From a virus, in the IMG/VR virus record IMGVR_UViG_3300016476_001273, positions 1 through 64,000 of that record: a stretch of 64,000 bases of DNA; one strand, written 5' to 3'. Shown here piece by piece: positions 2,381 to 58,740 of the stretch. The position numbers and the translations under genes were made by a program. The notes beneath the pieces were generated by a model. It was not told the DNA's origin and searched no databases. It saw only the letters and a program-made list of their open reading frames with translations. Position 1 is the stretch's first letter. Each line of letters opens with the position of its first letter.

Positions 2381-2382
2381 AA

Positions 2383-4407: not shown

Positions 4408-4787
4408 TATTGAATATAATTAATATAAAAAATACTTCCTGTATTTCCTGTTACTGTGAAAGTACTAGATGAAGAATAACCACTCCAAGAAAAAGTAGAA
4501 GGTGAAATTGTTATTGTAGTAGATGTAGTTCCATCATTAACTACAACACTTCCTTCTTCTATTGTTAATGTTAATCCATCAACACCTACAGGTTTAACCC
4601 AAGATTGTGTTCCAGTAAATCTAAGAAGTTTACTTGTTTGAGAAACAGACCCGCCAACGCCTGTTTTTTTATTAATTCCTACTAAAACGTCTTTTGTAGA
4701 CATAATAGCATTTAATATTTCTTTTAATATAAGAGATAATCCATAATTATCTCTATTAGTATATGTTTCGTTTCTTTGGTAATACAT
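4407..4787 (-). CDS. Small virion/tail-associated protein
   Basis: 126 aa with a beta-rich C-terminus. Stop/start overlap with the fibre gene. Confidence 0.45.
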   Translation of the reverse strand: MYYQRNETYTNRDNYGLSLILKEILNAIMSTKDVLVGINKKTGVGGSVSQTSKLLRFTGTQSWVKPVGVDGLTLTIEEGSVVVNDGTTSTTITISPSTFSWSGYSSSSTFTVTGNTGSIFYINYIQ

Positions 4788-4871
4788 TATTTTAATTTTT
4801 TTTACTAAATTAAATTTTTAAATAAACATTAAAAAAAACAACTACTTTCAAAATTTATTTTATATTACAAT

Positions 4872-7800
4872 TTAATTATTTTTAAATATTAAATCCATAT
4901 ATTCTAACTGTTGTTCAGGGTTCATCAATCTTAATATTTGATAATAAGGAGATATAACACTTTTTTCTAATTTAGAAACAATTTTATAGTCTCCTTTTTC
5001 ATATCCATCTCCATTTTTTTCATATAAATCATTAGCTCCCCAATCAAGTTCTAAATCTCCTTCTTCATTAAACATAGAAACACTAATTAAATCTCTAACT
5101 AAACCTAAATTAACATCAATCATTCTAGTCATAGTAAAAGGGTCTTTAGCAAATCTTTGTGCTGTATCTATTGTGTAAGATGCAGGAAGACCTTGTCCCG
5201 GAATATATAAAAACGGAGTATAAAATCTCATTTCAGCTTGCATTTTAAAAGCATAAAACTCCATCCATTTTAATACTTTTTTAGAATCTTCGTCTTCGAC
5301 ATCATCAGAAGCTAAATGTATTAAAAAGCCTAACATCATCATTTGAATTATTAAACCTAAGTCTGCACTAGTTCTTTCAATTGCTCTTTTTTGTCTTTCG
5401 TTAATATCTTTTCCATATATTAATTCATCATATTTAGCACTATCAAATAAACTCTTATATCCCTCACTCATTGATAATATTGGTAAGTTTTTTAATCCAC
5501 TTCTTAATGATTCAACTCCAGTTTTCCATACAACATCACCCATAGCTCTTAAATATTTAGGAGCTATTTCTTTAGAAATAAAACCTTTCATTCCATGTTT
5601 ATTAAAAATATCTTTATAATCAGAAATTAATTTAGAAAGATATGTTTTATAATATCCTTCTTCAATTGTATAAGATTCCCAGTCTAATTGTTCACTTTGA
5701 AATCTTGCCATCCATGTGTTATATATCCATCTTTTAAATACTAACATGAGTCTACCATACCATGTTCTACTTAATAAATTTCTATCTTGGTCATTGTAAT
5801 TACCATGTAATTGTCTATTTATTGTTTGAACTAATGAAGAAAATTTAGATTTAACATCATCTGTAACCCAGTCTTCAAACTGAACCAATTCTCCTTCTTT
5901 ATGAATAACACTATTATATAATGTACTTTCTACTAATTCCCCTTTATCATTTTTCTTTTTTACTACATTTCCGTCTTTATCTCTTTGCTTCCATCCTTTC
6001 ATTAAACAAACCATTGTTAATAATTGATTTGTATATTCCGTTCCATTTGATGTAGCCATCCATATATCTTGCATAAATTTTTCAGCTAAATTTTCTTTAT
6101 GTATCATTCCTTTATTATCTAAAAATTCTCCTTGAATTGCATTAAAATAATAAGAAAGCTGAGAAAGCATGCTTTTTTCTATAAAAGAACTTTTACTCCA
6201 ATCAGCAACAAATGTTTTTAATTGACTAAATGATATAAATAATTCTCTATAAGTTTCTCTAAATATTTTTTTATTAAAATTTCTACCCATAGCTGCTTCT
6301 GAATAGTTTGAAATAGTAGAAATAAAATGGTTAGCAGGCATAGCTGCAAAATTAAGAGATAATGCTTGATAAGCACTTAAACCTGTTATGTTTGTAACAA
6401 GTTTTTGCATATCTATTTTAACATTTCCTAAAGCGATAGCATATTCTTTTTTGCTCATCCCATTTATCATATCTTTTAAAAACACTTCTAAATTTTCACT
6501 TAAATTATCAGCATCTACTGTAACTACTTTTCCTGTATTTTCGTCTAATATTTTTTCTCCATCACTACTAAGTACATAAGCTTTTCTTTTACTAATACCT
6601 GCTTTTTCATCTCCAGAATAAATAGTTCGAATTGTATTTAATTTAGGAACTAACGTTGTTCTCAGTGCATAATTATTTACTTTACTATTCATTAATGAAA
6701 AAGCATAAAGTAAATCTTTCTCTCTTTTATAAGGAGGAATGTATTCTGAATATTCAATAGTTACTTCATCTACTATTTTACCATCTACTCCATATTTATT
6801 TTTACTTACTCTAGCAGCATATTCTTCTTCAACTACTTCGTCAATTTCATTTAAAAATTCTATTTTACCTGTTTCAGGATTTCTTCTACTTTTTGGTTCA
6901 GTATTTTCTTTATATGTAATATCTAATTGATTTTCTATTTTATTTAATTTAGATAAAGCTCTTTCTTTTAAAGTTTTTTGTTCAAATAATGGAATATTAT
7001 ACAATCCATAAAATCTTTTATTTCCTAATTGTTCATTTATTTTTTGTTTAGTCATTAATAATAAATCATATATTTTTTTTTCTTGAGAAAGTAAACTTTC
7101 TATTGCTTTAAATTTACTAGAAGCTTCTTTATCAAAAGGAAAAGCGTTTTGACCATCGATTTTATAACGAGAATTAAATTCATTTAATTCTCCTTTTTTA
7201 GTGTAAAATGAAGTAATGTTTTCTACATCTCCAGCAATAAGTTTCCAAGTACTACCTTTTTCTTCGTATATTAAACTATCTAAATAAAACAATTTTGTTT
7301 CTTCATCATATTTTTCTACTAATATTCTTTTTACTCTATTTCCTTCACTATTAAGTATTTCCATTCCTAATAAACTATCCATACTAAATTTAATACGAGA
7401 AGAAAGTGTAGAATATTTTCCATTTTGTTTATTTTCAACTTTTTTAGAAAGTGATGCTAAATTTCTTTTTACTTCTGTAGATTCTTCTAACGCTTTATAA
7501 TTAAAGTCTAATATTCCATCTTCTTTTGTTTTTATTATTTTATTTTCACGTAATATTGTTTTAGTTTCAGAGCGAGATTTAGTTGTCATTCTAGTTTTAT
7601 AAAAACTTTGCCATAAAACACTTTGTATTATATTTTTTAAAACATCTAAATTTTCTAAAGAATCTTCATAAACATCTGTTTTTTCAAAAAATTCCATATC
7701 TGTATAAATATCAATACCTGTCTTTATAAAAGCCTCAGATAAAGGTATTTCATATTCAACATCTAATTCTTTAAAAATATTTTTTACTGTAATTATATCA

Positions 7801-9842
7801 TCTTCCCTCATTTGTTTAAGAGGAATTTTTTTAAATATTTCTCTAATTTTTCTTTCTAAAAGTTGAGTAAAAAGTAATTTTTCATTTCTAAATGTATAAT
7901 CATCATATTCTTTTATAATATCTTCTTCATCAAGCATCTGAACATAATATATCTCATTAAACATTTTTATAGGTTCGTAGCTAATACCTCTTTCTTTATT
8001 TTTTTTATCTGCGTTCTGTTCCTTCATTTTTCTTTCTAATAATTCCATTTGTTCTTCTTTAGAAAGCTTTTGTTCTTCCTCAGATAGTTTTAAAATATCT
8101 TGAATTTTTCCATATTTATTAAGAGCAACTTTTTTAGTTTTAAAAATAAATTTATCAAAAAATTTCTCTTTATCTTCTGAGTTTAAATTATCAATTTTCG
8201 CTTCTTTTCTAAGTTTTTCAAATACAGCATTTTCTTCTATATTAGTTCTATTTACTTTAGCAAACATGTCTTTTATAAAAGAAGTTACTAATTGAGTAAT
8301 TTGGTCATTTAAACCAATAGTTTCTCTGAAATAATGAGACATTGTACTAACATCTTTTAAAGCAACTTTAACGACTTCTTTAAACTTATCTACTTCTAAA
8401 AAATATTTATCTGTTAAATAATTTTCCTCATTATCTAAAAATGCTTTTCTTTTAAACTCCTCCATTTTATCCTTATATTCAGGATAAAATGTAGAAGTGA
8501 ATACATCGACATATAAATCATTCATTCTTTCTTTAAAAACATTAGACATGTTCATACTATCTTTTAATACTTGAAGAAAAGTATTTTTATTTCTTGATAG
8601 TTTTGATAATTCAAGATTTAAAGAATAAACAAAGTCATTAGGATTAGCTACTCCTTCTTTTGTTAAATATTCAGATAAATCAGATAAAGATAAATTTCCT
8701 TCTGTGTTAAATAACTTATATCCTATTTCATTAGCTTCTAATTGTGTATTATTTTCTTCATTAAACTTTTTTACATATTCAACAATAGCATCTGACAATT
8801 TTCGTTTATTAAATTTATCTATATATTTTTCATTACCGTCAATAAGTACTATGTCAGTATATAATTTAGATAAATTATCAAATAAATGATAAAAATATCT
8901 TCCTTGTTGAAGAAGGTCGTTTATATCTTTTAATTCTATTTCAGCATCTATTTTATCTTGTTGTACATCAGATTTTCTTTTTATTTCTATATCTGCTAAC
9001 CTTTGTTTAATAGATTTTGGAGGAAAATCTAAAGTTTTTTGTACTTCTGCAATTTTACTTTTAATATATTCACTATCTGGATTTTTCTTTAATTCACTTT
9101 CAAAATATTTTAGTTTTTCTTTTTGTCTTTTTATATAATCACTAGTAGCTCCAAAAAATAATTGAGAAAGATAGTTAAGTTTGTTTACAGATTGTCTTAC
9201 ATAATTATCAATACCTTTAACTATTTCTTGATTATCTTTATCTTTTAAACTTCTAATCAAAGAATCAATTTCTTTTTTACTTACAGATAATTGATAATTA
9301 TCACTAACATTTTTCATACTTATTAAATAAGCATTTAATTTATCAACAATTTCGTTTCCGAAATCAACTAATATATTTTCATTATCTTTATTAGAAATTG
9401 TTTGTAAATGTGTTTCTAAGTTAATAATAGAAGGAAGAACAAATAATTCTTGAATATATCTTGTTTCACTACTTGTATCAATTTTTAAATCATCTTTTGG
9501 AATACCTTCATCTACTAAAGAAGGAGAATTAAAAACATTTATGCCTATGTAAGTATATGGCTTATTATTATACTCAACATTAAAAAATTTAATAGCACTT
9601 TTATTTTCATCGTCATCATATAATCCTTTTGCTTTTAAAAATTCTAATACTGTAGGATTATCTATATATTCATGTTTTAAATATAAACGTTTTACACCAT
9701 TTCTTTCTTGATGAAAAACAATATTTTTACCTATTAAATATTCTATTACTTCTTTATGAGCATTAGTAGCTAGTGATACATATTCTTCATCAAGTCCACT
9801 ATCTTTAACAGTATTTATTATATATGGTATTCTACAATTCAT
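4872..9842 (-). CDS. Giant ejected (cargo) virion protein, last gene of the RNAP cluster
   Basis: 1656 aa, helical. The C-terminal HGNYNDQDRNLLSRTWYGRLMLVFKRWI motif is typical of the crAss-like ejection protein encoded after the RNAP. Begins MNC. Confidence 0.7.
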   Translation of the reverse strand: MNCRIPYIINTVKDSGLDEEYVSLATNAHKEVIEYLIGKNIVFHQERNGVKRLYLKHEYIDNPTVLEFLKAKGLYDDDENKSAIKFFNVEYNNKPYTYIGINVFNSPSLVDEGIPKDDLKIDTSSETRYIQELFVLPSIINLETHLQTISNKDNENILVDFGNEIVDKLNAYLISMKNVSDNYQLSVSKKEIDSLIRSLKDKDNQEIVKGIDNYVRQSVNKLNYLSQLFFGATSDYIKRQKEKLKYFESELKKNPDSEYIKSKIAEVQKTLDFPPKSIKQRLADIEIKRKSDVQQDKIDAEIELKDINDLLQQGRYFYHLFDNLSKLYTDIVLIDGNEKYIDKFNKRKLSDAIVEYVKKFNEENNTQLEANEIGYKLFNTEGNLSLSDLSEYLTKEGVANPNDFVYSLNLELSKLSRNKNTFLQVLKDSMNMSNVFKERMNDLYVDVFTSTFYPEYKDKMEEFKRKAFLDNEENYLTDKYFLEVDKFKEVVKVALKDVSTMSHYFRETIGLNDQITQLVTSFIKDMFAKVNRTNIEENAVFEKLRKEAKIDNLNSEDKEKFFDKFIFKTKKVALNKYGKIQDILKLSEEEQKLSKEEQMELLERKMKEQNADKKNKERGISYEPIKMFNEIYYVQMLDEEDIIKEYDDYTFRNEKLLFTQLLERKIREIFKKIPLKQMREDDIITVKNIFKELDVEYEIPLSEAFIKTGIDIYTDMEFFEKTDVYEDSLENLDVLKNIIQSVLWQSFYKTRMTTKSRSETKTILRENKIIKTKEDGILDFNYKALEESTEVKRNLASLSKKVENKQNGKYSTLSSRIKFSMDSLLGMEILNSEGNRVKRILVEKYDEETKLFYLDSLIYEEKGSTWKLIAGDVENITSFYTKKGELNEFNSRYKIDGQNAFPFDKEASSKFKAIESLLSQEKKIYDLLLMTKQKINEQLGNKRFYGLYNIPLFEQKTLKERALSKLNKIENQLDITYKENTEPKSRRNPETGKIEFLNEIDEVVEEEYAARVSKNKYGVDGKIVDEVTIEYSEYIPPYKREKDLLYAFSLMNSKVNNYALRTTLVPKLNTIRTIYSGDEKAGISKRKAYVLSSDGEKILDENTGKVVTVDADNLSENLEVFLKDMINGMSKKEYAIALGNVKIDMQKLVTNITGLSAYQALSLNFAAMPANHFISTISNYSEAAMGRNFNKKIFRETYRELFISFSQLKTFVADWSKSSFIEKSMLSQLSYYFNAIQGEFLDNKGMIHKENLAEKFMQDIWMATSNGTEYTNQLLTMVCLMKGWKQRDKDGNVVKKKNDKGELVESTLYNSVIHKEGELVQFEDWVTDDVKSKFSSLVQTINRQLHGNYNDQDRNLLSRTWYGRLMLVFKRWIYNTWMARFQSEQLDWESYTIEEGYYKTYLSKLISDYKDIFNKHGMKGFISKEIAPKYLRAMGDVVWKTGVESLRSGLKNLPILSMSEGYKSLFDSAKYDELIYGKDINERQKRAIERTSADLGLIIQMMMLGFLIHLASDDVEDEDSKKVLKWMEFYAFKMQAEMRFYTPFLYIPGQGLPASYTIDTAQRFAKDPFTMTRMIDVNLGLVRDLISVSMFNEEGDLELDWGANDLYEKNGDGYEKGDYKIVSKLEKSVISPYYQILRLMNPEQQLEYMDLIFKNN

Positions 9843-9852
9843 TTTGTATTAG

Positions 9853-12800
9853 TTATATAAAACATGAAACATTATCTTCAAAATTATTATCATCATTTTC
9901 TTCTTTTTGATAAAAAAGAAATTGGTCATTTTTAAGAGTTGCGTATTTATAGTTTATAAAATTTACCCAATCTTTAATATCTTTTTCTCTAGCAAATTCT
10001 AATTTAGCTTTAAATATAGCATCCCAATTGGTAAATTCTAAAAAAGTCTCAGAAGATTTTGACTTATCATAGTCAAAAACATCAATACAAAGTGCTTTAA
10101 TTCCTATTTGTCGTACTTTCCTAACACCATCTATTATTTTTGATGTATAAGAACCAACTACTTTTAAATTTTTATCTATCAAATCATATTCTTCCACCCA
10201 ATTTCCGTTTTCTCTATTTACATTTATTATAGATATTCCTAAAGGAGGAACAATATATGACTTTGTTGTATAATCACCATGTCTCCACCCATTATGAAAT
10301 TTTATAGAATTAGGAAACAATTCTTTTATTTTATTTTCTACAAGTTGACCTTCTGATGCTATATAATCTAAATCATGTAATAAGTTTTTTGATTTTCTAT
10401 ATATTGTTCCTTGAGTAGATAATGCCGCTGAACCTGTAAGAGTAAAATAATTTTTCATTTTATTATGTATTTGTGTAGCTAAAAAATCATTTTTTAATGC
10501 TGTTTTAAAATCTACTAAAGCTACATCAGAATTATTATTAATATCTAATAACATTTCATTATTAAACACTTTTGTAGCAATCTCTTTTGCATATCTGTTT
10601 AATTGTTGTAAATCATTTTTATATTCAAATAATTGCAACACAAACTTCCATAATGTTTTAAATATATTTTCTTTTATTTCTTTACTTACAGTTGGTTCTT
10701 GTTTAATTAAATGTAAAGCTATAAATTTACCAACTGCCTCTACTTTAATTTTTTCAATATCTCCTTCATACGTAGAATAATAATCATTATATACTTTAGA
10801 ATAACCTTCCCATTTATCAATACTGTTTATCATTTTATCCATCTCAGAAGTGTGTTTTAGTAAAAATGTAAACATATGAGCAGCTTCTTCTGGGAGAGTG
10901 TCAAGAGATTCCCTTTTTTTGTCTATATATATAATTTTATTTAGTATATCTGTTACACCAATAGCGTCTATTTTATTTGTGTTTTCAAATTCTTTTATAT
11001 CTTTTACAGTTATATTATATTTTTTTAAATAATTCATTAAACGATTATTTAATTCTAAGTTTGCCTCTTCAACAAGTCTTTCTATTTTTTTTGTGTTATC
11101 GTATATGTCAACAAAACTATTTAATTGGAAATAATTTTTACTATTATCTTCAAACAGTTTATTATATTTTTCAAAATTTTCATCATATGATGCTATATTA
11201 TTTATAAAAACATTATCTTCAATTTGATTTTGATTAACAAAATTCTGAAACCCTTCTACATCTTGTTTACTACCTAAGATGTGGATTTGTTCTGGTTCAA
11301 ATACTGCATATTGAGTATCTGTATTTAAAGAATATAATTCGTCTGTTTGAATTCCAAAATTTGCATTAAAAGTTACAGTTTTAGTTTTAAAATTTTTCTC
11401 TGCTAATTCTTTAGAAGAAGTATATTCTGTAATATTTTCTAATATTACTCCATCATTATTTTTAGAAGCTTCTCTAAAAATATCTTTTATTTTTTCTCCT
11501 TCTTTACTTAATTTAATATAATCCAAATTACTTTCTTTTTTTGGATTTCTTATATTAAGAATTGCATTTATAACATTATTAGTTTTACCACTTGTATGTT
11601 TATCTAATATTTTTTTTATTTCCTCTAATGATTTTTCTAAATATAATTCAGCTCCTCCAATTTTATTGAAATCTTCTAAAATTAATTCTGAATTTGGCAA
11701 ATTTAATAAATCACTTATATTTTGAGCACCTGCTAATGTGTAAAATATATTATTTTCTATTGAATCATCTTCTAAGTTTAAATCTTTATTTAAATTGATA
11801 ATATTTTTTAAATCTTTTTTTTGAATTTTAATAGGATTCTCAGATTCCCATTTTAAAGCATTTATTATGTTTTTAAAAAAGAAAATAGCTTTTTCGAACC
11901 TTGCTTTAGATAAATCAAACTTATTTTCTTGTAATTTATTTTTACTTCCATGATAAACAATATCCTTCACTTGACTATCAGGAAATATAGTATCTAAGTA
12001 TTGAGAGTATTGTTCAGCAGTACCTATATTAGCTAACTCAGGATTAGAATCAAATAATTCTTCTACTCCAGATTTTATTTTATTTAAATTATAATTTTCA
12101 TCGAATTTTTCATCGTTGACTATTTCGTTTTTACCATCAAAATATCCAACTTTTCCTACAATAATATCATTTAAAGGTTTAATTTTATTTTGATTTTTTT
12201 CTATTTCAGAATTACTTTCAAATGGTTTAACTCCTTCTGCTGTTGATAAAGTTATATGAGGAAATTTATTTTTAGATAATGGATTATCTACTATAAGTAC
12301 ATCTACTTTATCAGTTGTTAATCTACCTATTATTCTAATATTCCTATTTTCTCCAACAGGAAGATTTTCTATTGTTTGAGGTTTAAATTCTATAGTAGAA
12401 TGATGGGAATATAAATTAGGATGTACTTGATTATATTTATTAGTTAATTCATTAGTATTAAAAAATATAGCTGAATAAACAACATTTTTTTGTTGATTAT
12501 TAATGTTTTTATTTTCTGAAGATTGTGGGTTTGAAGTATTAGAATTAAATCTTAAAAACTTTTCATAAGTTTCTTCATAAATACTAGGATATGCTTCTTT
12601 TTCTTCAGGAGGTTTTTTTGGTTTATTTTTTTGTAAAACATCAAATAATTCTTTTTGAGAAGAAACTATTGTTCCCATTCTAATTGTAATCAAATCATAA
12701 TCAAATGGATAAAGTCTCTTTGTAAGAAATAAATTAGGAGAATTATATTTATCTCTAAGCGATTGTAAAATTTTCATTTGTTTTTTTCTCTCCTTTGACA

Positions 12801-12963
12801 TCTTAGGAGAAATTGAATAATATCTTTTTCCTTCATATTCAAATGTAGGAAATTTTTCATCCTTAAATGTTTTCCAAATACTTAATTCAATTTGCTCTAA
12901 ATGTTGAGCAAATTCAGGATTATCTGGAAATTTTTCATAAAGATAATTTAATTTACAGTTCAT
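9853..12963 (-). CDS. Polyvalent ejected protein: 2H phosphoesterase + ADP-ribosyltransferase + zincin-like + nucleotidyltransferase
   Basis: 1036 aa. HST and HIT (2H) motifs; IVYHGS...DGVILENI...YAVFEPEQI (ART of polyvalent proteins); LPEEAAH; LTGSAAL...HDLDY...REKDIKD (Pol-beta-type NTase). Confidence 0.7.
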   Translation of the reverse strand: MNCKLNYLYEKFPDNPEFAQHLEQIELSIWKTFKDEKFPTFEYEGKRYYSISPKMSKERKKQMKILQSLRDKYNSPNLFLTKRLYPFDYDLITIRMGTIVSSQKELFDVLQKNKPKKPPEEKEAYPSIYEETYEKFLRFNSNTSNPQSSENKNINNQQKNVVYSAIFFNTNELTNKYNQVHPNLYSHHSTIEFKPQTIENLPVGENRNIRIIGRLTTDKVDVLIVDNPLSKNKFPHITLSTAEGVKPFESNSEIEKNQNKIKPLNDIIVGKVGYFDGKNEIVNDEKFDENYNLNKIKSGVEELFDSNPELANIGTAEQYSQYLDTIFPDSQVKDIVYHGSKNKLQENKFDLSKARFEKAIFFFKNIINALKWESENPIKIQKKDLKNIINLNKDLNLEDDSIENNIFYTLAGAQNISDLLNLPNSELILEDFNKIGGAELYLEKSLEEIKKILDKHTSGKTNNVINAILNIRNPKKESNLDYIKLSKEGEKIKDIFREASKNNDGVILENITEYTSSKELAEKNFKTKTVTFNANFGIQTDELYSLNTDTQYAVFEPEQIHILGSKQDVEGFQNFVNQNQIEDNVFINNIASYDENFEKYNKLFEDNSKNYFQLNSFVDIYDNTKKIERLVEEANLELNNRLMNYLKKYNITVKDIKEFENTNKIDAIGVTDILNKIIYIDKKRESLDTLPEEAAHMFTFLLKHTSEMDKMINSIDKWEGYSKVYNDYYSTYEGDIEKIKVEAVGKFIALHLIKQEPTVSKEIKENIFKTLWKFVLQLFEYKNDLQQLNRYAKEIATKVFNNEMLLDINNNSDVALVDFKTALKNDFLATQIHNKMKNYFTLTGSAALSTQGTIYRKSKNLLHDLDYIASEGQLVENKIKELFPNSIKFHNGWRHGDYTTKSYIVPPLGISIINVNRENGNWVEEYDLIDKNLKVVGSYTSKIIDGVRKVRQIGIKALCIDVFDYDKSKSSETFLEFTNWDAIFKAKLEFAREKDIKDWVNFINYKYATLKNDQFLFYQKEENDDNNFEDNVSCFI

Positions 12964-13456
12964 AATATTCTCCTATATGACTATCCAACAATAATAAAGT
13001 ATGTTTTTCTATTCCAAATGTTTCTAACATATCGACCAAAGTTTGAGCTTTATCTATTTCTTCTACTTGCTCTTTACAATATCTCATTGCTAAATCAAAC
13101 AGTAAATAATCGTCAGTATCTTTAGCATATCTAGCTAAAGATTTACATTGTTTACTTATTTCTATTTCGTGTTCAAGAGTTTTATTAATAATATCAGGTA
13201 ATCCTTCAAATTCATTTAAAGGACTATCTAATCTTTTTAATTTAGGTGTAATCCCAAATGAAAGTAAATATTCTTTACTCCATCCAGAATGAGTCATTTC
13301 TTCGTTAGCATATTTCTTATATAATTTAGAAAACATTTTAAAACCTTTGTCATCTAAATATAAAGACATTTGTTCATATAGTCTTGAAGAAAGCTCTTCT
13401 TGTTCAATTCTATATTCTAATAATGTAATTACTGATTCGTTAATTAATTCGTTCAT
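12953..13456 (-). CDS. ftnA: Non-heme ferritin
   Basis: 167 aa. Ferroxidase residues are recognisable in EQEELSSRLY, ANEEMTH, LEHE and KEQVEE. Confidence 0.88.
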   Translation of the reverse strand: MNELINESVITLLEYRIEQEELSSRLYEQMSLYLDDKGFKMFSKLYKKYANEEMTHSGWSKEYLLSFGITPKLKRLDSPLNEFEGLPDIINKTLEHEIEISKQCKSLARYAKDTDDYLLFDLAMRYCKEQVEEIDKAQTLVDMLETFGIEKHTLLLLDSHIGEYYEL

Positions 13457-13467
13457 TTTATTTTAAT

Positions 13468-25368: not shown

Positions 25369-28300
25369 TAATTACAAGGTTTTACTTTTTCTAAATATAA
25401 TTTATAAATTTCATTCATCTTAGGTTTTAATATTGCTTTCAATTTATGTAGAGGTGCTTCATTTTTTATTAATAATTTAAAGGCTTTCTCCATATTTTCA
25501 TCATTATTAATAACTTCCTCTAACACGTAAAAATTACTTTTATTAAATACTAAAATCTCTTTATTTTTTACATTCATATTTTGTAACTCTATAGTTCCAA
25601 AAGTACTAAAAAATTTAATTAATTCTGATTCATTCTCAACATTTAATTCTGGTGAGATTTGTTCTCTTATCTCAACTTCTTGTTCTACTTTTTCTTCTTT
25701 AATGACAGTTGGTGTAGTAATTTCTAAAAATGAAGATTTATCTTCTTTAAATAGTTTAGGAGAATCTTCAACTACTTCCACTCTATCATGAAAAAAACTA
25801 TAAGTAGTATCATTTCTCATATCGTCAGAGCCACTTTTAAACTCTATACCTTTAACCACATGAGAATTTTGTGCAACAACATCTTCATATGTTTTAAATT
25901 TTTTAGAAGTAGAACTTACAAAATTAATAGATATATTTTTTAAAAAATTATTAAAATTTACATCTTTTTCATCTGTAACAGGATTAAATTTTTTATTTAT
26001 ATCTTCTTTAATCTTTCTTTTTAAAAATTCTATTGTATTTTGTTTTTTTACTCCGTCTAAATTATAATTTCTTCTCCAAAAAATAGTTTTTCCATTATTA
26101 TCTTTATATCCATAAAGTATACTAATACCTAAAATTTTTTCTTTTTCGTTTTCAAAATTATTATATTCAACTTTATATATTTCAAATTTAGTATTTAATT
26201 GTTCTTGTACACCACTAATATTAATAAACCATCCGTCATCTCTAACATCACCTTTTTTTTCATTTGTTTTAATTAGTGATACTAAATCTGTTGTATCAGG
26301 TAAAGATATATTTTTTGATACTAAATTTTTTACATAAGGTCTATTAGTTTCTGTATCTGTAAAAATTAAATTAAAACCATTAGATAAAAAAGTAGCTGGA
26401 GAATTAGCTAATACAACTTCTCCCTTTTCGTTTACTATTGTTTCATTTAATTGTGCTATTAATTTAATTTTAATTTCTTCTTGTAAACTTTCAGGAATAC
26501 TTCCATAAAAAGTTCCTCCTTGAATCGCTTCTTTAATTATATTTCTAAAATCCGCATTATTAGAAAAAGCAGTTTCTTGTTCATTAATTTGTTCATAAAG
26601 AATTTTTAAATATAATACTGCTGTATATTGATTACCGTTTTCATCTATAACTTTATTATTAGGAAGCTCATCAACAGGTACTAATTCTGTATAATTACTA
26701 TTTAAAGTTGACTTTTGTAATGTTTTAGAAGAAATATAATTAGTAAGTAATCTTTTTAATTTTACATTTTCTCCTTTTAATGATTTTTCTAATGTTTTTT
26801 GTCTTTCAATAGATAAATCTAAATAACTTTTTTCTATACCTAAATTATTTAAAAGTTCTTCTAATTTATTAGTATTATTTTCTTCTAAATATTCAATAAC
26901 ATTAAATAAAGAGACATATCCACTAATAGATTCAAAATTTTTAGCATTAACAATGTTTTTACTATTAAAATTAAAATTATCTTTTAATTCAATTCTTAAA
27001 GATTGTAAATATTGCTTACTAATTCCCCAACCATTTCTTAAATCTCTATATTCTTGTAAAATAATTTCTTCATCATCTTGTTTAGTAGAAATTACAAAAA
27101 TAGGAGCATTGTTAATTTTTAATAATTTACCTCCTGCTATTTCTTGTTTTTCTATTTTATCTAATGTTATTATTGTTTTATCAACTTTAAAATCTATATC
27201 ACTAACATTATTTATAGAATTTAAAAATTTCCTACGTTTTAATAACATTTCATTTCCTTTTTTCTTATTTAATACTCCTAACCCTGTATCATTTAAATAA
27301 AAATCATTTTGCATAAAAATAATATTATCTTTTGAATTAGGAACTGAACTAACAGGTTTACTTATTGGAGGAATCGGTGTTCCTGTATTTTCATTTTCTT
27401 TATTTAATAATAGTTCATCTTCATTTTGTTCTATTTCTTGAGTAGATTCTAATTGTTGATTTTCTATATTGGATTCAAGTGTTTCTGATTTTTCATCATT
27501 TAATGATTGTTCTGTTTCACGTTCATCAATTATATTCACAACAGCTTTTTCAGTTACTTTCCACCCAGTATTTGTTTTTGCAACTACTCCTTCTTTTAGT
27601 ATATCCATCTTTGTAGGAGTAAAACTTAACTTATTAAATTCTAAAGAATTTTGAAAAACGTTTAAATTTTGTATAATAGTATTAACTGTTGATAAAGACG
27701 TATTAGGAATTAATCTACCAGTTTTTCCATTTTCATCAGGAATAATTTGAAAATAAAATTCATCTGTAGATTTTTTTATATAATTATTATCAAATTCTCC
27801 ATTTTCATTATTTCCTCCAAAATAAAGAATTGTAAATTCTTGTCCTTCTAAATCTTTTGTATTAAAATTTTCTTCTAACTTTTCTAGTTCTTCCTCAACA
27901 CTTTTTCTTAATTCAGGAGTATTATACTTATTAAGTATTTTTTGTTCATCTGGTGTAAACTCCGTAATCATTTTACCAGATTCCATTTCTTTATAAAGTT
28001 CTTTAGCTAATTCTTTATCATATTCAGCATTAATTTCTATATACTCATTTACTAATTTTTCAGCATCTTCTCTATTAGCTAATCTATTTGCACCTTTAGG
28101 ATATTTAGGAGTAAAATAAACATTTCTTTCTATAACAGCTAATCTTCCTGAAGAAATAACATCTATATTTTTACCAAAAGTGAATATTAGTTTTTCTTGT
28201 CTCCTTTTTTCTATATCTTCTTTAATAACATCAACAATTTCTTTTTTCTTTTCTGGAACTACATCTTGTGTATTAGACTGGTTTTTATTTTTAATATTAC

Positions 28301-31300
28301 TTAAATAAGTATTCCAGTTATCTAAAAGTGTTTTTATTTTATTATATTGAATATTTTTGTCAAAACCTTGATTTAAATTATTAATATCAATTGTTTCTTT
28401 TTGGTATAATAATAAATTTATTTGTTTACTATTTAATGATTTTTCTCCTTTACTAAAAAGAGGATGAAAATCTTTCAAATTACCTTTTTGTAAATCTAAA
28501 CCACCTTCATAATTTATTTCTTCTGTCAATATATCACCAACAAGTTTAAATAAAGGGTTATCATAATAACGTTCCATTTCAGGAACAGTTCCTTTAATAA
28601 CCCATCCATCTGTACCAAAACCAAAAAAAGGATACCATCTGTTTTTTTCTTTTCCACCTGTACCTTTACTACTCCTATAAAATGGAACTATATCATTTCC
28701 TAATTTCATAAAAACAATGGGTCTATCTACTGTCCAACCTAAATGAACATCATTAATATCATTTGAAAGTTTTCCATCAACATTTAAACTTGTTAAAATA
28801 CCTAATTCAATTAATTTATTTATTTTTTCACTATAAGATAAATTTTCTAATTGTTTTTTTATAGTGTCTTTATCTAAAAATAAAGGTTCAATAAAATCAG
28901 AAGTGTTTTCTATAAAACTTAAAAACTTATCATTTGTACCTGTTAAATATTTTCCATATAACTGAAATCCTATAATGTTTCTAATATTTTGATATAATAA
29001 AGGATGTTTTTCTTTAAGCTTTTTATCAAACACTCCTTTATATAAAACATTTTCACCTTCTATGTAAACATATATATCAGATAAAGAATTTCCATCATAT
29101 TTAACACTTACGATTTTATTATCGTAAATAAAACTAAACTCATCATTGTTAATAACTTTATTTAAATTTGTAGGAACATGATACCCAGAAAAACCTATAT
29201 GTCTACCTTCAATTCTTCCTTTAAATAAATCATCTATTTGAGTATCATCTCCTAGATTTCCAGTAGTAATTAATTCAAGTATATTTGGAAATTTTAACTT
29301 TATATCAGAAATAAATTTTAATACATCATCAGCACTTCCTATATAAATAGTAAAATCTGATTCTCCTATTTCTCCACCAGCGAGATGTTTAAATGGTTCT
29401 CGTTCATTTCCACTATCATCTTTAATAATATAATGGTTTTGAAGATTTTTAGAATTAGCTTTTTCTTTACTTCCGAAATACTCTAAAAGAAAATTTATGA
29501 GTTTTTCTGCTTTTTCATTATATTCTTTATCTATAGATTGTCCATAATAAGAATTATTTGTTTTAGAATTTTTTATGTTAAATCTAATCTTCCATCCAGA
29601 TTGTCCACCTTTTACATTACCATTTGAAAGTCTATTTTGTGTTTTATAATCTAATGAATTTAATATTTTTTCTCCTAATTTTAAATTTTCCTCTTTTATT
29701 TCTTTTTGTATTCTTCTTTCTATATCAGCTTTTTTAGCTTCTATATCTGTAGCAGTTTTACTTTTTAAAGTGGCTAGTTCTGCATCATATTTAGCATTGA
29801 TTTTACTTATTTTGGATTTAGTTGACTTAGCAGCTTTTTCTATATTTTGTTGGTTTTTGTTTATATATTCTTGAACTAAAGGATTTTCATCAGAACCTTT
29901 TTGTATATCTTCAGGAACCAAATTAGCAATGATATAATCAAGAAAATCACTAAGCTCTTTATTAGTTGGATTGTTTTTAACTTCTTCATGTAAATTATTA
30001 AAAGCTTCTCTTACAGTACTACCATAAGTTTGAAACTCCTTAAATTTTTTATCATATTCGTACAAACCTGTATTGCTTAATTCTTCTTGTCTTCTTCTTT
30101 CTATATCAGCTTTTTTAGCTTCTAATTCTGCTTCTTGTTGTTTTTGTGTATTTTGTTGGTTTAAGGATTCTAATTCTTTATCATATTTATCATTGATTTG
30201 TTTTTCTTTATTTTCATCATACCCTTTCTTTTGTGCATGAGATAAAATTTCTTTTGCCTCTTCTCTTGATGTATTATGAATATCATATTCTAGTCCACTT
30301 TTACTTATTACAATGACAACATTTCCTTCTTCATCAAGAACATTTTTATAATATTTACTAAATCCTTTTACAATAGTATAATTTTTTCCTTTAGATGTAA
30401 ACTCTGTAATAGCTTGAAAAAACATACCTAAAAGTTTCCATAATGTTTCATCACGGTGATTTGTAAAATCTAATGTTTTTGCTAAATCTGCTTCTTTTTT
30501 TAATCTGTCCTCTACATAAACAGTTTCAAATCTTCTTCTTTTTTCTATATCATCTTTAACTACTTCTAATACATCTTTTTTATCTGGATTGGGAATAGGT
30601 TTTAATGTACCATCTTCATTTTGATAAAAAATTAAACCTTCATTCACATAGTAATTAGATGTTCCTATTTGGCCTTCTATTTCTGATTTTGTGGAAGAAG
30701 GTGTTTTTAAAGTTGTTACTAATTTATTATTTTCATCAAACTTTAGTGTATATATAAATGGTGAGGTTTTAGCTAACTTTAAATCAAAAGGAAGAGGATT
30801 AAAATTTTCTACATCTATTTTGTTTTTAAAATCTCCTTCAAATTTTTCTTTCTTATAAGATACAGGAATAACAACAATGTTTATATTAGGTTTATATCCT
30901 AATGTCTGTTCTAACATTATTGAATATGCTGTTTGCTGGTCAGTCCATTTTTCTTTATCTGATTTTTGTTTTTTACTAAACGGTTTTTCTATTTTATCTT
31001 TATTTATAGGATAGCGAGAATCATTTTCTGCTTTTGTTTTAAAATCATAAATATGTACAATACCTTTACTATCAACAACAACCATGTCTAATGTTCCTGC
31101 CACTCCATCCCATCCTTCTTCTAATTTAATATCTGTATGAACAAATATTTCATCTGTAATGAATACTAAATTATTATCATTTAATTGTTTTTTAATATCA
31201 TCTTGTATTTGTTTAAATTTGTTCTTACTCTCATTAAATATTTTTTCTACTTCTATTTTTGTAAATTGTTCTTTTCCGTCTTTGGTTTCTTTTTCTTTTA

Positions 31301-34300
31301 ATGCTTTCTGAAACTCTTCTATTGTTAAATTATTATTTTTAAAATACATTCTTGCAAACACATCAAAATAATTACCAACAACTAAAGAATTTTTTATATT
31401 TGTAACTTTATCTTTATCAGTAAAATCTAATAAATCACCAATAAAATTACTTACTCTTTTATATAATTTTCCTAAAAAACTATAATGTGATTCTTTATCT
31501 TTAGTTTCTTTTATTAATTTTGCTTTTTTACCATCTTCTATAAGACTATTAATTTTATCAAGTGTTGTTTTTTGTGAAGAAGAAATATTTTCATTATTGT
31601 TTCCTGTTTCATTATTTATTAGTTTACGGAAATAACTTTGTAAATCACGGTCAGTAATTTGTTTTTCAATTATCTGCTCTTCAATCAATGTTAATTTTTC
31701 ACCATTCAATTGTTTTTTATAAATCTCTTTAGTTATTTCTATAGTAAGGTCAGGTTTTCCTACAATTCTCCACTTACTCATATCATTTTCATATGTATTT
31801 AACATACCAAGTAAAACTTCTTCTTTTAAATACAGTTTAATTGAAGGGTAATTTGGGTCAACAGTATAATATTTATTAATTGTTTTATCTAAAACATAAG
31901 AATAAACAGCAACTATTTTATCACTATAATTATATACCTCAATTTCAAATTTATCTCCTAAGTCATTTAAACTTTTTAATGTAAAAGGTAATTGACTCGT
32001 AGATGATGAATCCGAACTTGGGAGTACATTAGGTTCATTATTTATTATTTTAGAAACATCATCTAATTTTTCTTTATCTACTACACTTGTAGCTTCTTTT
32101 TCTTTTTCTTTTTCAGCATCTTTAGATAAATCAGGAGTTTCTTGACTTTTATTAACAACATTATCTTTAACCTTTTCAACAGGTTTTAATTTATCTTTAA
32201 ACTTTTGAATTACAGATTCTTTTTGAGTTTTCTTTTCTTCTTTACTTAGTTTATCATTTTCTTCTATTTGAATAATTTCACTAATAATATCTAACTTTGT
32301 TTTATGAGACTCTTTATCAAATTCTTTATCTACTTCTTTTTTAATATTCTTTAATCTTTCTTCTTTAGCAAAAAATTCATCTAAAACTTTAAAATAATCT
32401 TTATTTTCTTCTAAATAAAAATTAAAATCATTATATAATTTTTTATATCTTTTTATCGTATTGCTATTATTAGATAAGGATTCGTCTATTATTTTTATAT
32501 CATTTGCTTTAACTAAATCCTCATATGCTGTTTTAGTTGTGTTTTCATTATTATTTTCAATTAAGTTATAAGCATCTGCAATATTTTGAAGATTGACATT
32601 ATCTAATACTTCTATCTCTTCTCCGTCTTCGTTTTCAATTACTTCATACGTAGTTGATTTTTTTATTAAATCTAACGCATTTTCTAATCTTTTTAATTCT
32701 TCTTGTACATTAGTATAATCTTGTGTATCTGGTTGTACTAATTTTAATGTATTAATTCTATTTTCTAATTCAGAATAATCAGAAATAAGAAATTTAGAAA
32801 GACTATTTATTTTAGGAGACATTAACCCATTTCTTCTTTCTTTTTGTCTATCAATCATAAATTTCATATGAGACAATTCTCTTTTGTATTTACTATATTT
32901 TATTTGAGTAAGAGGGTCTTTGAAATCATCATTAAATGAAAATTTTATTGTTTTAGAAATATTTTCTATTTTATTTAACTTATCTAAAACATCATTTACA
33001 AATGAGGTATGGTCACGTGTTTGCTCATTTATATCAATATTATATAATTGATTAATAACTTTTACAGGGCTACTAGCTATTTGACTAAGATGGTCTTTAA
33101 AAACATCTTGTTTTCCTGTTTCTACAACATCATGTAATATTTGAGAAATATGTCTGTCTTTAATATTATAATACCATCTTTGAGCATGAACACTTTCAGA
33201 TTTTAAAATATTTTCTAATACTGATAAACTATTTAAACTAGAAAGAGCTTGATTATATTTTTCTTCTAATGTTCCTCCTAAACTATTTTGATTTAAACTG
33301 TTACTCAAAATATCTATTAACATTTTTTTATCTTCTTCTGTAACAGATTCTTTCATACTATCTTTAGAAAATATTGACTTAGAAAGTTCTTCTAATTTAG
33401 AAGCTATTATTTCATTTTGTGCAATTTTATTTTTTAATCTATTAGAACCTGTAGCTATTTCATAACCAGTATTAAAAGTTTGCTGAATACCTCCTCCAAT
33501 ACTACCCATTAAAAAAGATTGTATAGCTTCTTTATTAAGACCTTTATCAGCAATAGTCTTAAACATTTCACTTATATATTCTCCTGTCTTAATAGATGTT
33601 TCTGGGTGCATATAAACACCTTTATATAATGAATTACTATATTCATCTATTATATATTGCATATATTCTTCCATTCCTTCTGAAAAAGATAAAGGAATTT
33701 TAGAATATTCTTGACCATATTTTATAGTTTTTTCTGCCGCATTTTTGAGAAATTTTCCTACTTTACCTTCTGGAGTCCAGTTTAATTTAATATCTTTTGT
33801 TTTTTTAACAGAAAATTTTCCACTATCACTAACTATTTCTCCTAATGTATTTTCACCAAATACTTTTTTACTAAATTTTTCAGCTCCGGGAAAAGTTTTT
33901 AATAATGCCCCCATTTGTAAATAATTAGGAATCATTAAAACTGCTAGATTTAACCCATATCTCATGTCACCAATTTCTTGAGCTGTGCTTTTTATATTTT
34001 CTAAAGTTTTTTGGTCTGGTAACATACCAAAATTATTTTCTTTATATTTTTGAATAGCTTCTTCTTCAAATCTTTTAGCTCCTTCAAGTCCTTCAAACGC
34101 GGATTCAAAATGTGAACCAGCATACATTCTATATAATTGTGGGGCTTCTTCAATTCCTTTTCCAATTAAATAACCTACTTCTCCTATTACTTTTCTAACA
34201 TTATCTTCTTTATTTATAGCTTTAAACAAAGAAAGTATTTTATCTAATTTTGCAGGATTATTTAAGTATTTAGATATTCTTCCTCCCAATCCTGCAAGTT

Positions 34301-35015
34301 TAGTTCCTTTAGATATAACACTTCCTATATTTCCTGTTAAAAAAGCTTCTGCCATAGCTCCCACTGTATATCCACTTGAAGCTACAATATCTTGAAACCC
34401 ACCATCTCCAAAAAAAGGTATCATATCTCGTATCCAATTTTCCTTACTCCAATTAGATTTATAATTTCTATTATTTTCTGCTACTTCATTTGAAAATTCA
34501 AAAAGAGTTTTATTTAATCCACTATCCCATCCTACATTAAAAAATTCAGAAATAGGTTTATCTCTTCCAGATAGATAACCTGCTACATTAATAGTACTAC
34601 CAATAATATTAGGTATTGCGGCTAATCCACCTATAAATGAAGAACTAGCTGCTACTCCAAAATTTTTAGCTGTATTTAAATATCTTTCAGTATCTGTTTG
34701 AGTACTCCTCATAAGAGCCTCATAGTTATCATCAAATTTTATTCTTTCACTAATTTCATCTCCTTTATTAATTTTTTTTAATTCATCAGGAGTTACTTTT
34801 ACATATTTATCTTGATATTGTTCATCAATTTTATCTAAATCAACTTTAGGACTATTTAAAATATCTCTTTGTATTTTTTTAATAATATCTTCTTCTTTTT
34901 TCTCTGTAGGAATAGGAGAAAACTCTGGAGAATTTAAAGGAGAATTTAAAGAAATATCAAAATCTAAAGGTGATAATTTAGGAGCTTCTATTTTAGGTAT
35001 TAATATTTTATCCAT
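25368..35015 (-). CDS. Giant ejected virion protein with PD-(D/E)XK nuclease and repeat-bracketed variable domains
   Basis: 3215 aa. Gly/Ala-rich hydrophobic N-terminal region and SEGMEEYMQ motif typical of the crAss-like protein upstream of the RNAP. AGTLDMVVVD...IYDFKT nuclease motif. TAATG overlaps at both ends. Confidence 0.75.
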   Translation of the reverse strand: MDKILIPKIEAPKLSPLDFDISLNSPLNSPEFSPIPTEKKEEDIIKKIQRDILNSPKVDLDKIDEQYQDKYVKVTPDELKKINKGDEISERIKFDDNYEALMRSTQTDTERYLNTAKNFGVAASSSFIGGLAAIPNIIGSTINVAGYLSGRDKPISEFFNVGWDSGLNKTLFEFSNEVAENNRNYKSNWSKENWIRDMIPFFGDGGFQDIVASSGYTVGAMAEAFLTGNIGSVISKGTKLAGLGGRISKYLNNPAKLDKILSLFKAINKEDNVRKVIGEVGYLIGKGIEEAPQLYRMYAGSHFESAFEGLEGAKRFEEEAIQKYKENNFGMLPDQKTLENIKSTAQEIGDMRYGLNLAVLMIPNYLQMGALLKTFPGAEKFSKKVFGENTLGEIVSDSGKFSVKKTKDIKLNWTPEGKVGKFLKNAAEKTIKYGQEYSKIPLSFSEGMEEYMQYIIDEYSNSLYKGVYMHPETSIKTGEYISEMFKTIADKGLNKEAIQSFLMGSIGGGIQQTFNTGYEIATGSNRLKNKIAQNEIIASKLEELSKSIFSKDSMKESVTEEDKKMLIDILSNSLNQNSLGGTLEEKYNQALSSLNSLSVLENILKSESVHAQRWYYNIKDRHISQILHDVVETGKQDVFKDHLSQIASSPVKVINQLYNIDINEQTRDHTSFVNDVLDKLNKIENISKTIKFSFNDDFKDPLTQIKYSKYKRELSHMKFMIDRQKERRNGLMSPKINSLSKFLISDYSELENRINTLKLVQPDTQDYTNVQEELKRLENALDLIKKSTTYEVIENEDGEEIEVLDNVNLQNIADAYNLIENNNENTTKTAYEDLVKANDIKIIDESLSNNSNTIKRYKKLYNDFNFYLEENKDYFKVLDEFFAKEERLKNIKKEVDKEFDKESHKTKLDIISEIIQIEENDKLSKEEKKTQKESVIQKFKDKLKPVEKVKDNVVNKSQETPDLSKDAEKEKEKEATSVVDKEKLDDVSKIINNEPNVLPSSDSSSTSQLPFTLKSLNDLGDKFEIEVYNYSDKIVAVYSYVLDKTINKYYTVDPNYPSIKLYLKEEVLLGMLNTYENDMSKWRIVGKPDLTIEITKEIYKKQLNGEKLTLIEEQIIEKQITDRDLQSYFRKLINNETGNNNENISSSQKTTLDKINSLIEDGKKAKLIKETKDKESHYSFLGKLYKRVSNFIGDLLDFTDKDKVTNIKNSLVVGNYFDVFARMYFKNNNLTIEEFQKALKEKETKDGKEQFTKIEVEKIFNESKNKFKQIQDDIKKQLNDNNLVFITDEIFVHTDIKLEEGWDGVAGTLDMVVVDSKGIVHIYDFKTKAENDSRYPINKDKIEKPFSKKQKSDKEKWTDQQTAYSIMLEQTLGYKPNINIVVIPVSYKKEKFEGDFKNKIDVENFNPLPFDLKLAKTSPFIYTLKFDENNKLVTTLKTPSSTKSEIEGQIGTSNYYVNEGLIFYQNEDGTLKPIPNPDKKDVLEVVKDDIEKRRRFETVYVEDRLKKEADLAKTLDFTNHRDETLWKLLGMFFQAITEFTSKGKNYTIVKGFSKYYKNVLDEEGNVVIVISKSGLEYDIHNTSREEAKEILSHAQKKGYDENKEKQINDKYDKELESLNQQNTQKQQEAELEAKKADIERRRQEELSNTGLYEYDKKFKEFQTYGSTVREAFNNLHEEVKNNPTNKELSDFLDYIIANLVPEDIQKGSDENPLVQEYINKNQQNIEKAAKSTKSKISKINAKYDAELATLKSKTATDIEAKKADIERRIQKEIKEENLKLGEKILNSLDYKTQNRLSNGNVKGGQSGWKIRFNIKNSKTNNSYYGQSIDKEYNEKAEKLINFLLEYFGSKEKANSKNLQNHYIIKDDSGNEREPFKHLAGGEIGESDFTIYIGSADDVLKFISDIKLKFPNILELITTGNLGDDTQIDDLFKGRIEGRHIGFSGYHVPTNLNKVINNDEFSFIYDNKIVSVKYDGNSLSDIYVYIEGENVLYKGVFDKKLKEKHPLLYQNIRNIIGFQLYGKYLTGTNDKFLSFIENTSDFIEPLFLDKDTIKKQLENLSYSEKINKLIELGILTSLNVDGKLSNDINDVHLGWTVDRPIVFMKLGNDIVPFYRSSKGTGGKEKNRWYPFFGFGTDGWVIKGTVPEMERYYDNPLFKLVGDILTEEINYEGGLDLQKGNLKDFHPLFSKGEKSLNSKQINLLLYQKETIDINNLNQGFDKNIQYNKIKTLLDNWNTYLSNIKNKNQSNTQDVVPEKKKEIVDVIKEDIEKRRQEKLIFTFGKNIDVISSGRLAVIERNVYFTPKYPKGANRLANREDAEKLVNEYIEINAEYDKELAKELYKEMESGKMITEFTPDEQKILNKYNTPELRKSVEEELEKLEENFNTKDLEGQEFTILYFGGNNENGEFDNNYIKKSTDEFYFQIIPDENGKTGRLIPNTSLSTVNTIIQNLNVFQNSLEFNKLSFTPTKMDILKEGVVAKTNTGWKVTEKAVVNIIDERETEQSLNDEKSETLESNIENQQLESTQEIEQNEDELLLNKENENTGTPIPPISKPVSSVPNSKDNIIFMQNDFYLNDTGLGVLNKKKGNEMLLKRRKFLNSINNVSDIDFKVDKTIITLDKIEKQEIAGGKLLKINNAPIFVISTKQDDEEIILQEYRDLRNGWGISKQYLQSLRIELKDNFNFNSKNIVNAKNFESISGYVSLFNVIEYLEENNTNKLEELLNNLGIEKSYLDLSIERQKTLEKSLKGENVKLKRLLTNYISSKTLQKSTLNSNYTELVPVDELPNNKVIDENGNQYTAVLYLKILYEQINEQETAFSNNADFRNIIKEAIQGGTFYGSIPESLQEEIKIKLIAQLNETIVNEKGEVVLANSPATFLSNGFNLIFTDTETNRPYVKNLVSKNISLPDTTDLVSLIKTNEKKGDVRDDGWFINISGVQEQLNTKFEIYKVEYNNFENEKEKILGISILYGYKDNNGKTIFWRRNYNLDGVKKQNTIEFLKRKIKEDINKKFNPVTDEKDVNFNNFLKNISINFVSSTSKKFKTYEDVVAQNSHVVKGIEFKSGSDDMRNDTTYSFFHDRVEVVEDSPKLFKEDKSSFLEITTPTVIKEEKVEQEVEIREQISPELNVENESELIKFFSTFGTIELQNMNVKNKEILVFNKSNFYVLEEVINNDENMEKAFKLLIKNEAPLHKLKAILKPKMNEIYKLYLEKVKPCN
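28003..30575 (-). repeat. Dispersed coding repeats DIE[KR]RR (4 copies) and IN[AD][KE]YD[AK]EL (3 copies)
   Basis: Exact 33-nt repeat ttcttctttctatatcagcttttttagcttcta at 29711-29743 and 30092-30124. Degenerate copies near 28190-28240 and 30525-30575. Closing motifs near 28003-28040, 29765-29810 and 30165-30200. Confidence 0.85.
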
Positions 35016-37591: not shown

Positions 37592-37663
37592 TTTTCATTA
37601 ACTTAATTAATTCTAATTAGTTGTAAAATTAATTATAAATTTATTTAATTAATTTATATTAAT

Positions 37664-37702
37664 AAAAAAAAAAGTCCACTTATTACAAATGGACATTTTT
37701 TT
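37664..37702 (-). terminator. Rho-independent terminator
   Basis: Minus strand GTCCATT-TGTAATA-AGTGGAC followed by a T10 tract, right after the stop of the 623-aa gene. Confidence 0.7.
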
Positions 37703-56117: not shown

Positions 56118-56120
56118 ATA

Positions 56121-56663: not shown

Positions 56664-56687
56664 TTTTTATTTTATTTTAAATTTTTA

Positions 56688-57230: not shown

Positions 57231-57231
57231 A

Positions 57232-58728: not shown

Positions 58729-58740
58729 TATTTAAATTTT

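Follow-up and report, generated by a model that had tools for sequence, protein, structure and literature searches.

How might a phage pack and deliver as one set several giant proteins that it encodes in separate genes, when relatives encode the same parts as a fused polyprotein? This question is raised by a 64,000-nucleotide stretch of viral DNA (hereafter the window), positions 1–64,000 of IMG/VR record IMGVR_UViG_3300016476_001273, a 136-kb virus record that is 92% complete. Within a long series of genes, the window carries a block of open reading frames (ORFs), all on the minus strand, that is by its homologies an RNA-polymerase 'polyprotein' split over four genes. Its four proteins are almost free of cysteine (Cys) except at the ends that face a neighbor in gene order, and in related phages such a pair of facing Cys is present where the genes are split and absent where they are fused. 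We refer to a Cys near the N-terminus as a head tag and to one near the C-terminus as a tail tag. In gene order, and with lengths in amino acids (aa), the four links are:

25368–35015, minus strand: first link, 3215 aa; ends ...VKPCN, with its sole Cys at 3214 (codon 25374–25376); tail tag only.
13468–25368, minus strand: predicted virion RNA polymerase, 3966 aa; MNCSIP...PNCNFI, with Cys at 3 (head, codon 25360–25362), 1604 (internal) and 3963 (tail, codon 13480–13482).
9853–12963, minus strand: middle link, 1036 aa; MNCKLN...VSCFI, with Cys at 3 (codon 12955–12957), 959 and 1034 (codon 9862–9864); both tags.
4872–9842, minus strand: last link, 1656 aa; begins MNCRIP, with Cys at 3 (codon 9834–9836) and 1279; head tag only, no C-terminal Cys.

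The Cys at the facing ends stand, in gene order, at residues −2 and 3, −4 and 3, and −3 and 3 (negative numbers count from the C-terminus), and the 3215-, 3966-, 1036- and 1656-aa proteins hold 0, 1, 1 and 1 others. Six of the nine Cys in 9,873 residues thus occupy the six neighbor-facing termini, and the two outer ends have none. An earlier interpretation made from the letters alone (the sequence-only reading) had described this layout, with a tail Cys only on the first protein, a head Cys only on the last, both on the middle two and zero or one internal Cys in each; translation bore out every one of these statements. Given the window-wide Cys frequency of 146 in 19,389 residues, ~3e-9 is the probability that six specified five-residue ends would each contain a Cys by chance. 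The second codons of the three MNC starts are AAT, AAC and AAT, a synonymous difference, and among relatives the residues flanking the terminal Cys vary while the Cys itself is kept. Together, these two observations place the signal at the level of the protein.

Pfam and PHROGs recognize little in the window proteins; giant proteins resembling gp47, gp50 and gp49 of phage crAss001 are present there in crassvirus order. The 3966-aa protein carries DYDID at residue 1615, which aligns with the DFDVD region of crAss001 gp50 and upholds the RNA polymerase label given by the sequence-only reading, and BLASTP matches it to gp50 across residues 1564–1798 (E 1e-9). It has 257 database homologues, with DFDxD in nearly all of the 120 of these that were listed, and in a tree it falls inside a clade of crAss-like contigs. 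By homology, this protein corresponds to crAss001 gp50 and phi14:2 gp66 and is the predicted virion RNA polymerase. In one polymerase alignment (A3) Cys3 is invariant and Cys3963 is at least 90% conserved; in another, of 26 distant homologues (A1), Cys3963 is again at least 90% conserved and among the ~37 best-kept columns. The C-terminal third holds several add-ons: an N4 gp14-like domain (2871–3008), a PIF1/AAA_30 helicase (3309–3493) and a match to GNAT that falls slightly short of the Pfam cut-off. The first of these corresponds to PHROG 2072 and shares 40–74% identity with N4 gp14-like proteins of many unrelated phages. Relatives of the polymerase have quite different C-terminal domains in this part (window region 13468–17000, residues ~2870–3966) and retain the tail Cys.

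The other three links also have counterparts. The 3215-aa protein shows weak homology to crAss001 gp47 (E 4.7e-4) and a stronger match to the N-terminal part of a fused polymerase ORF from a related locus, L019 (E 1.6e-22); from these matches it is the counterpart of crAss001 gp47 and phi14:2 gp67. Each of the five members of its family (P0274–P0278) has one Cys only, between −1 and −3, and Cys3214 is invariant in alignment A2. A hidden Markov model built from the first 1000 residues of this family retrieved no distant relatives; BLASTP with free-standing gp47-like proteins did find them. The word-based homologue searches returned five proteins for the 3215-aa link and three for the 1656-aa link. 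BLASTP against gp49 matched both the 1036-aa protein (E 6e-11) and the 1656-aa protein (E 2e-11), the latter also matching gp49-like cores at E 8e-33. The gp49-like proteins of other phages contain domains of the 1036-aa protein in their N-terminal half, and their C-terminal core (crAss001 gp49, phi14:2 gp65) is what the 1656-aa protein matches; judged from these matches, a gp49-like protein seems to have been cut in two in this window. Relatives of the 1656-aa protein carry their sole Cys at residue 2 (P0122) or residue 3 (P0123). The 1036-aa protein is built of modules common in large phage proteins (1793 representatives, E ≤0.001). Used as a query in viral contigs it retrieved nothing, and Foldseek with its model gave no match at E ≤0.001; the best Foldseek rows were weak matches of its confidently modeled C-terminal domain (residues ~810–1005) to Pol-beta-type nucleotidyltransferases (E 0.017–0.03, probability up to 0.98).

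Is this arrangement particular to the window? The sequence-only reading had called for a comparison across Crassvirales, and terminal Cys proved to be both conserved and complementary in cultured phages and in survey loci. In crAss001, gp47 has its sole Cys at residue 2339 of 2341, gp50 has Cys at 5, 1334 and 2404 of 2412, and gp49 has its sole Cys at residue 5; all three proteins are reported in virions by mass spectrometry in the accessible text of the crAss001 paper (PMC10172136), whose Methods describe LC-MS/MS of virions both with and without reduction. In phi14:2, the sole Cys of gp67 is its last residue, gp66 has only Cys 3 and 2179, and the sole Cys of gp65 is at residue 3; all three are annotated from tandem mass spectrometry of virions. 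Most of the pattern is also seen in cr116_1, an uncultured phage of the Steigviridae, with a 2556-aa protein ending NCR (its sole Cys), a polymerase reading MSC...KMC, an 833-aa protein that ends KKLC and lacks an N-terminal Cys in its annotated form, and a 1281-aa protein starting MAKNSC.

We then surveyed 80 IMG/VR loci retrieved with the alignment of 26 distant polymerase homologues, which fall into 55 clusters at 50% identity; 70 loci were read in the standard code and 10 only with TAG as a sense codon. Of the polymerase-bearing ORFs whose 3' end is complete, 73 of 76 have a Cys among their last 10 residues; every downstream ORF of 800 aa or longer (69 of 69) has one among its first 10. 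This head Cys is the sole Cys in 40 of the 63 downstream ORFs that are complete, and only one of the 63 also ends in Cys, where another head-tagged protein comes next. Terminal Cys occurred in background ORFs of the same loci at 19 of 135 N-termini and 29 of 179 C-termini, and the core Cys content of chain proteins was 0.043% (190 of 441,297 residues) versus 1.0% in other ORFs. Among the 120 of 257 polymerase homologues listed, 96 have both tags, 17 the tail only, five the head only and two neither (10-residue windows). Three of the five head-only homologues have a tail Cys at −14. The family of P0109, P0113 and P0116 was considered as an exception, having no Cys in the last 10 residues, and was discarded as one, since its tail Cys was found at −14 and its neighbors obey the rule. 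The rule also holds in the loci that read TAG as sense (L043, L056, L066, L067, L071, L072, L075, L076, L078 and L081).

The tie between Cys pairs and gene breaks is the strongest point for the rule. Polymerase ORFs without a head Cys have 2540–5116 residues before the catalytic motif, and those with one have 278–2287 (3179 in one). The N-terminal parts of the long polymerase ORFs match free-standing gp47-like proteins, crAss001 gp47 matching 28 of them near their N-termini; because these extra parts are homologous to free-standing proteins, the long ORFs are read as fusions. Among complete ORFs that lack the head Cys, 32 of 49 have the tail Cys and no other. The proteins upstream of ORFs that have absorbed the first link carry no C-terminal Cys (0 of 41), and 40 of these 41 have no Cys at all. 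At the other end of the polymerase, all three ORFs lacking the tail Cys have a gp49-like module fused at the C-terminus. In L041 and L049, where all modules are fused, there are zero Cys in 5005 and 4933 aa, and L073 has the head Cys only. Fused junctions, both in these three loci and in the long N-terminal fusions, thus lack the pair, the outcome for which the sequence-only reading had asked that they be checked.

Conversely, a tail-tagged partner is visible for 15 of the 16 head-tagged polymerases, encoded on the same strand or on the opposite strand as in crAss001. The pair is also found at unusual breaks, in the polymerase N-terminal half (L051), in the polymerase C-terminal part (L019) and in the gp49-like protein of this window. 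In a FastTree tree of 45 polymerase cores, the state changed at least seven times at the upstream junction and three times at the downstream one; as these states were read from the Cys themselves, the count leans on the independent measures of fusion, module homology and length before the motif.

What could such pairs do? From the observed tags, their conservation, their tie to gene breaks and a solved structural precedent in another phage (below), we infer the bond itself, its timing and reduction, and its part in packaging and ejection. We give a probability of roughly 0.6 to the reading that the facing Cys form reversible disulfides between neighbors, stringing the cargo into one thread. 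These bonds would form after particle assembly or release and would join 3215, 3966, 1036 and 1656 residues into a single thread of 9,873 residues, packaged together in fixed proportion. The thread would leave through the tail N-terminus first, each protein pulling the next, and thiol reductants of the host cytoplasm would cut it back to separate proteins. The split genes would thereby imitate, reversibly, the fused polyprotein of relatives. Disulfides between subunits are known in crAss001 virions, where the accessible text of the structural paper describes them in the tail barrel, the hubs and gp57, that is, in the tail and portal vertex (PMC10172136).

Several observations weigh against a disulfide thread. 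Phage particles assemble in a reducing cytoplasm, so that disulfides would have to form later. We found no thioredoxin-fold gene or recognizable thiol-redox enzyme in the 136-kb genome; a search for Erv1, in which the controls gave no signal, carries no weight here. The crAss001 structure from cryo-electron microscopy (cryo-EM) does not resolve gp47, gp49 and gp50, and the accessible text reports disulfides only in the tail and gp57 (PMC10172136). The three window heads are nearly identical, MNC[SKR][IL][PN], and the immediate motif therefore does not fix the order of the train that the sequence-only reading proposed. The Cys-free core is not universal, as internal Cys number 8–16 in some gut lineages (L060, L069, L074). 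One homologue, P0034, has a head Cys only, and it and P0022 may be exceptions to the rule. Finally, a break in L039 (3449 aa, a 300-nt gap and 1213 aa; locus 1883–16173) lacks the Cys pair; the gap could be an intron or a mistake in assembly, or the locus may truly break the rule. Another polymerase ORF, in L024 (216–14479), is also broken without a Cys pair; it differs by a frameshift from its intact counterpart in L025.

The form of the tags bears on how they would work. Among the 73 tail tags, 70 lie 1–5 residues from the end and three lie at 9, with one further family at 14; the tail Cys is often preceded by K-K. The head Cys is at position 3–5 in 66 of 69 proteins, and about half of the clusters share a head motif, C-x-N-x-N-[TS]-x-E-[YW]-K-x-L. 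In an AlphaFold model of the 1036-aa protein, the mean predicted local distance difference test (pLDDT) score is 58.7, and residues 1–6 and 1007–1036 score below 50. On this model, the tags resemble short, flexible tails of the chain more than docking modules with a fold. The sequence-level predictions of the sequence-only reading were all borne out, which supports its interpretation in part; the link between the ends, for which it named disulfide, metal or beta-strand pairing, is a proposal. Co-folding residues 837–1036 of the 1036-aa protein with residues 1–400 of the 1656-aa protein from single sequences gave a score of 0.00 and a mark of 0.34, a result that counts neither way on binding. 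Split inteins with protein trans-splicing were considered and set aside, as Pfam finds no Hint or intein domain and only 0–13 residues follow the tail Cys and 1–8 precede the head Cys.

The middle link suggests that the system may accept other proteins. Relatives of the 1036-aa protein with 166, 553, 584, 738 and 843 aa keep Cys3 and the C-terminal Cys, with two Cys in total, and of 150 representatives with a domain in common with the 1036-aa protein, 49 have both tags. Small double-tagged proteins are also found in L054 and L064 (169 aa) and in L032 (345 aa). The earlier proposal that an extra protein could be inserted by carrying both tags is thus supported by double-tagged proteins of very different length and content. 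A tentative extension, to which we lend rather less than even credence, is a general, programmable 'disulfide polyprotein', in which any protein tagged at head and tail would join the polymerase thread, be packaged in step, be pulled in serially and be released by host reductants. It would explain the many two-Cys proteins, from 166 to >1000 aa, with unrelated payloads.

Other explanations of the facing Cys have to be set against neighbor-to-neighbor disulfides. The one that survives best, which we consider unlikely, holds that the Cys are not bonded together and that each ties its terminus to one shared partner, for instance the portal, a capsid-interior or scaffold site, or a packaging factor. 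The likeness of the heads across junctions, with MNC at all three in the window, speaks for it, and a head motif common to about half of the clusters would suit one recognition factor. However, a shared anchor sits poorly with outer free termini that never carry Cys and with tail and head Cys that are always gained and lost jointly at a break, and in cyanopodophage A4 the same signature is a direct Cys–Cys bond.

A shade less probable is a link between the same two ends by a bridging metal ion or other thiol chemistry, for which one could cite the ferritin gene inside the block of the window and, again, assembly in a reducing cytoplasm. Each end, however, offers one Cys with no conserved adjacent His or second Cys, and two thiols make a poor metal site; no ferritin homologue is found among small ORFs (150–399 aa) of the 80 loci, and there is no intein or Hint domain by Pfam.

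The chances are smaller still that disulfides form only after ejection, in the oxidizing periplasm, where they would assemble or lock a structure across the envelope. In N4-like phages, the suppression of Cys in ejected proteins has been explained by their crossing of the periplasm (PMC11445570, accessible text), which suits this account. Against it, the polymerase must enter the cytoplasm to transcribe early genes, as stated in the accessible part of the phi14:2 preprint (10.1101/2020.03.07.982082), and the A4 bond is seen within the packaged capsid (PMC12002296).

We hold it very unlikely that the Cys pair in another topology, for example with the polymerase closing on itself from N- to C-terminus and the first protein bonded to the last. 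The two tags on each middle protein make self-closure chemically possible. Yet where the first protein is fused to the polymerase, precisely the tail Cys of the former and the head Cys of the latter are gone, and the polymerase tail Cys and the partner head Cys stay in place; where the polymerase is fused to the last protein (L073), it is the other two that are missing. Only neighbor-to-neighbor pairing explains both cases without a switch of partners. Chance, or a DNA-level boundary signal that happens to encode Cys, deserves almost no weight and is already refuted as far as sequence data can do so: an AT-rich genome and three starts that spell ATGAA[TC]TGT speak for it, but the chance calculated for the window is minute, the Cys persists at varying distances from the end (1–14 residues) and among varying neighboring residues, the rule holds in TAG-recoded genomes and fused junctions have zero Cys.

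Around and between the links, the window encodes further proteins:

12953–13456, minus strand: ferritin-like protein, 167 aa; PF00210, 73.2 bits (cut-off 24.5); Cys at 104 and 127.
35015–39574, minus strand: two proteins of 858 aa and 623 aa that precede the chain, at the gp45/gp46 cargo position; zero Cys.

The 167-aa ferritin sits between two links, has no terminal Cys and is no chain member; the sequence-only reading had noted that it lacks both motifs, and its Cys are indeed at 104 and 127 only. Its gene shares 11 nucleotides with the beginning of the 1036-aa gene, and as a query it found one locus only, L002, which is not crAss-like. The Cys-free 858-aa and 623-aa proteins mark the start of the chain. 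Elsewhere in the window (55110–60027), four adjacent proteins are rich in Cys (3.0–6.6%; some start MCNNCQNNNC or MCRNCNC), in contrast to the Cys-poor cargo block.

No phages are more abundant in the human gut than crassviruses, and the terminal-Cys rule bears on the packing and delivery of their huge polymerase and its companion proteins. If disulfides between neighbors do form, they would explain why the products of separate genes could act as the fused polyprotein of relatives does, what could set ejection order and stoichiometry and by which route new payload proteins are recruited. The signature itself can be used to find ejected proteins in uncultured phages, and a general tag system, if real, would offer a natural plug-in route for cargo delivery.

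How does the window compare with known systems? The gp47–gp50–gp49 series of crAss001 and the gp67–gp66–gp65 series of phi14:2 resemble it in their giant proteins around a DFDxD polymerase, in gene order and in the terminal-Cys rule. Packaging in the virion and delivery to the host are shown for these two phages only and are predicted for the window proteins. The window differs in having four links instead of three, because its gp49-like part is cut in two, as well as an inserted ferritin gene and a 3966-aa polymerase with a helicase and other add-ons. Fused crAss polymerase-block polyproteins have the same modules in the same order as the split forms but lack Cys pairs at the corresponding positions. 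The accessible text of the phi14:2 preprint notes such fused forms as 'likely cleaved' and contains neither 'cysteine' nor 'disulfide' (10.1101/2020.03.07.982082). That of the crAss001 paper does not contain 'cysteine', its disulfide passages concerning the tail and gp57 (PMC10172136), and that of a survey of gut crAss-like genomes does not mention cysteines (PMC7886860).

In the main-text literature searched, we found no description of a terminal-Cys rule in crassvirus cargo. The sequence-only reading had said that it knew of no description of such a mechanism; this stands for Crassvirales, but in cyanopodophage A4 two ejection proteins have been seen joined by a disulfide from the C-terminal Cys of one to the N-terminal Cys of the other (PMC12002296, accessible text). 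There, cryo-EM shows the C-terminal helix of gp27 inserted in gp26 with a Cys1715–Cys5 disulfide, in a pre-ejectosome packaged inside the capsid (PMC12002296). In the record of Anabaena phage A-4L, Cys 1715 is the sole Cys of gp27 (1717 aa) and Cys 5 the sole Cys of gp26 (1114 aa), the product of the next gene. The window shares this signature of a sole or near-sole Cys near one C-terminus, followed by one near the N-terminus of the next gene's product. The A4 system differs in having one link, two proteins and no polymerase and in belonging to another family (Saffermanviridae), and BLASTP of A4 gp26 and gp27 against the window, reference and 80-locus proteins gave nothing at E <1e-3. In its accessible text, the A4 paper treats the bond as a stabilizing detail and not as a rule of gene breaks (PMC12002296).

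N4-like phages (Schitoviridae gp71, gp72 and gp73) provide a second comparison, as Cys is strongly suppressed in their ejected proteins, including the giant virion polymerase, like in the crAss block (PMC11445570, accessible text). Their ejection proteins are essentially Cys-free up to and including the ends, whereas the crAss block keeps a single Cys at each of its facing ends (PMC11445570).

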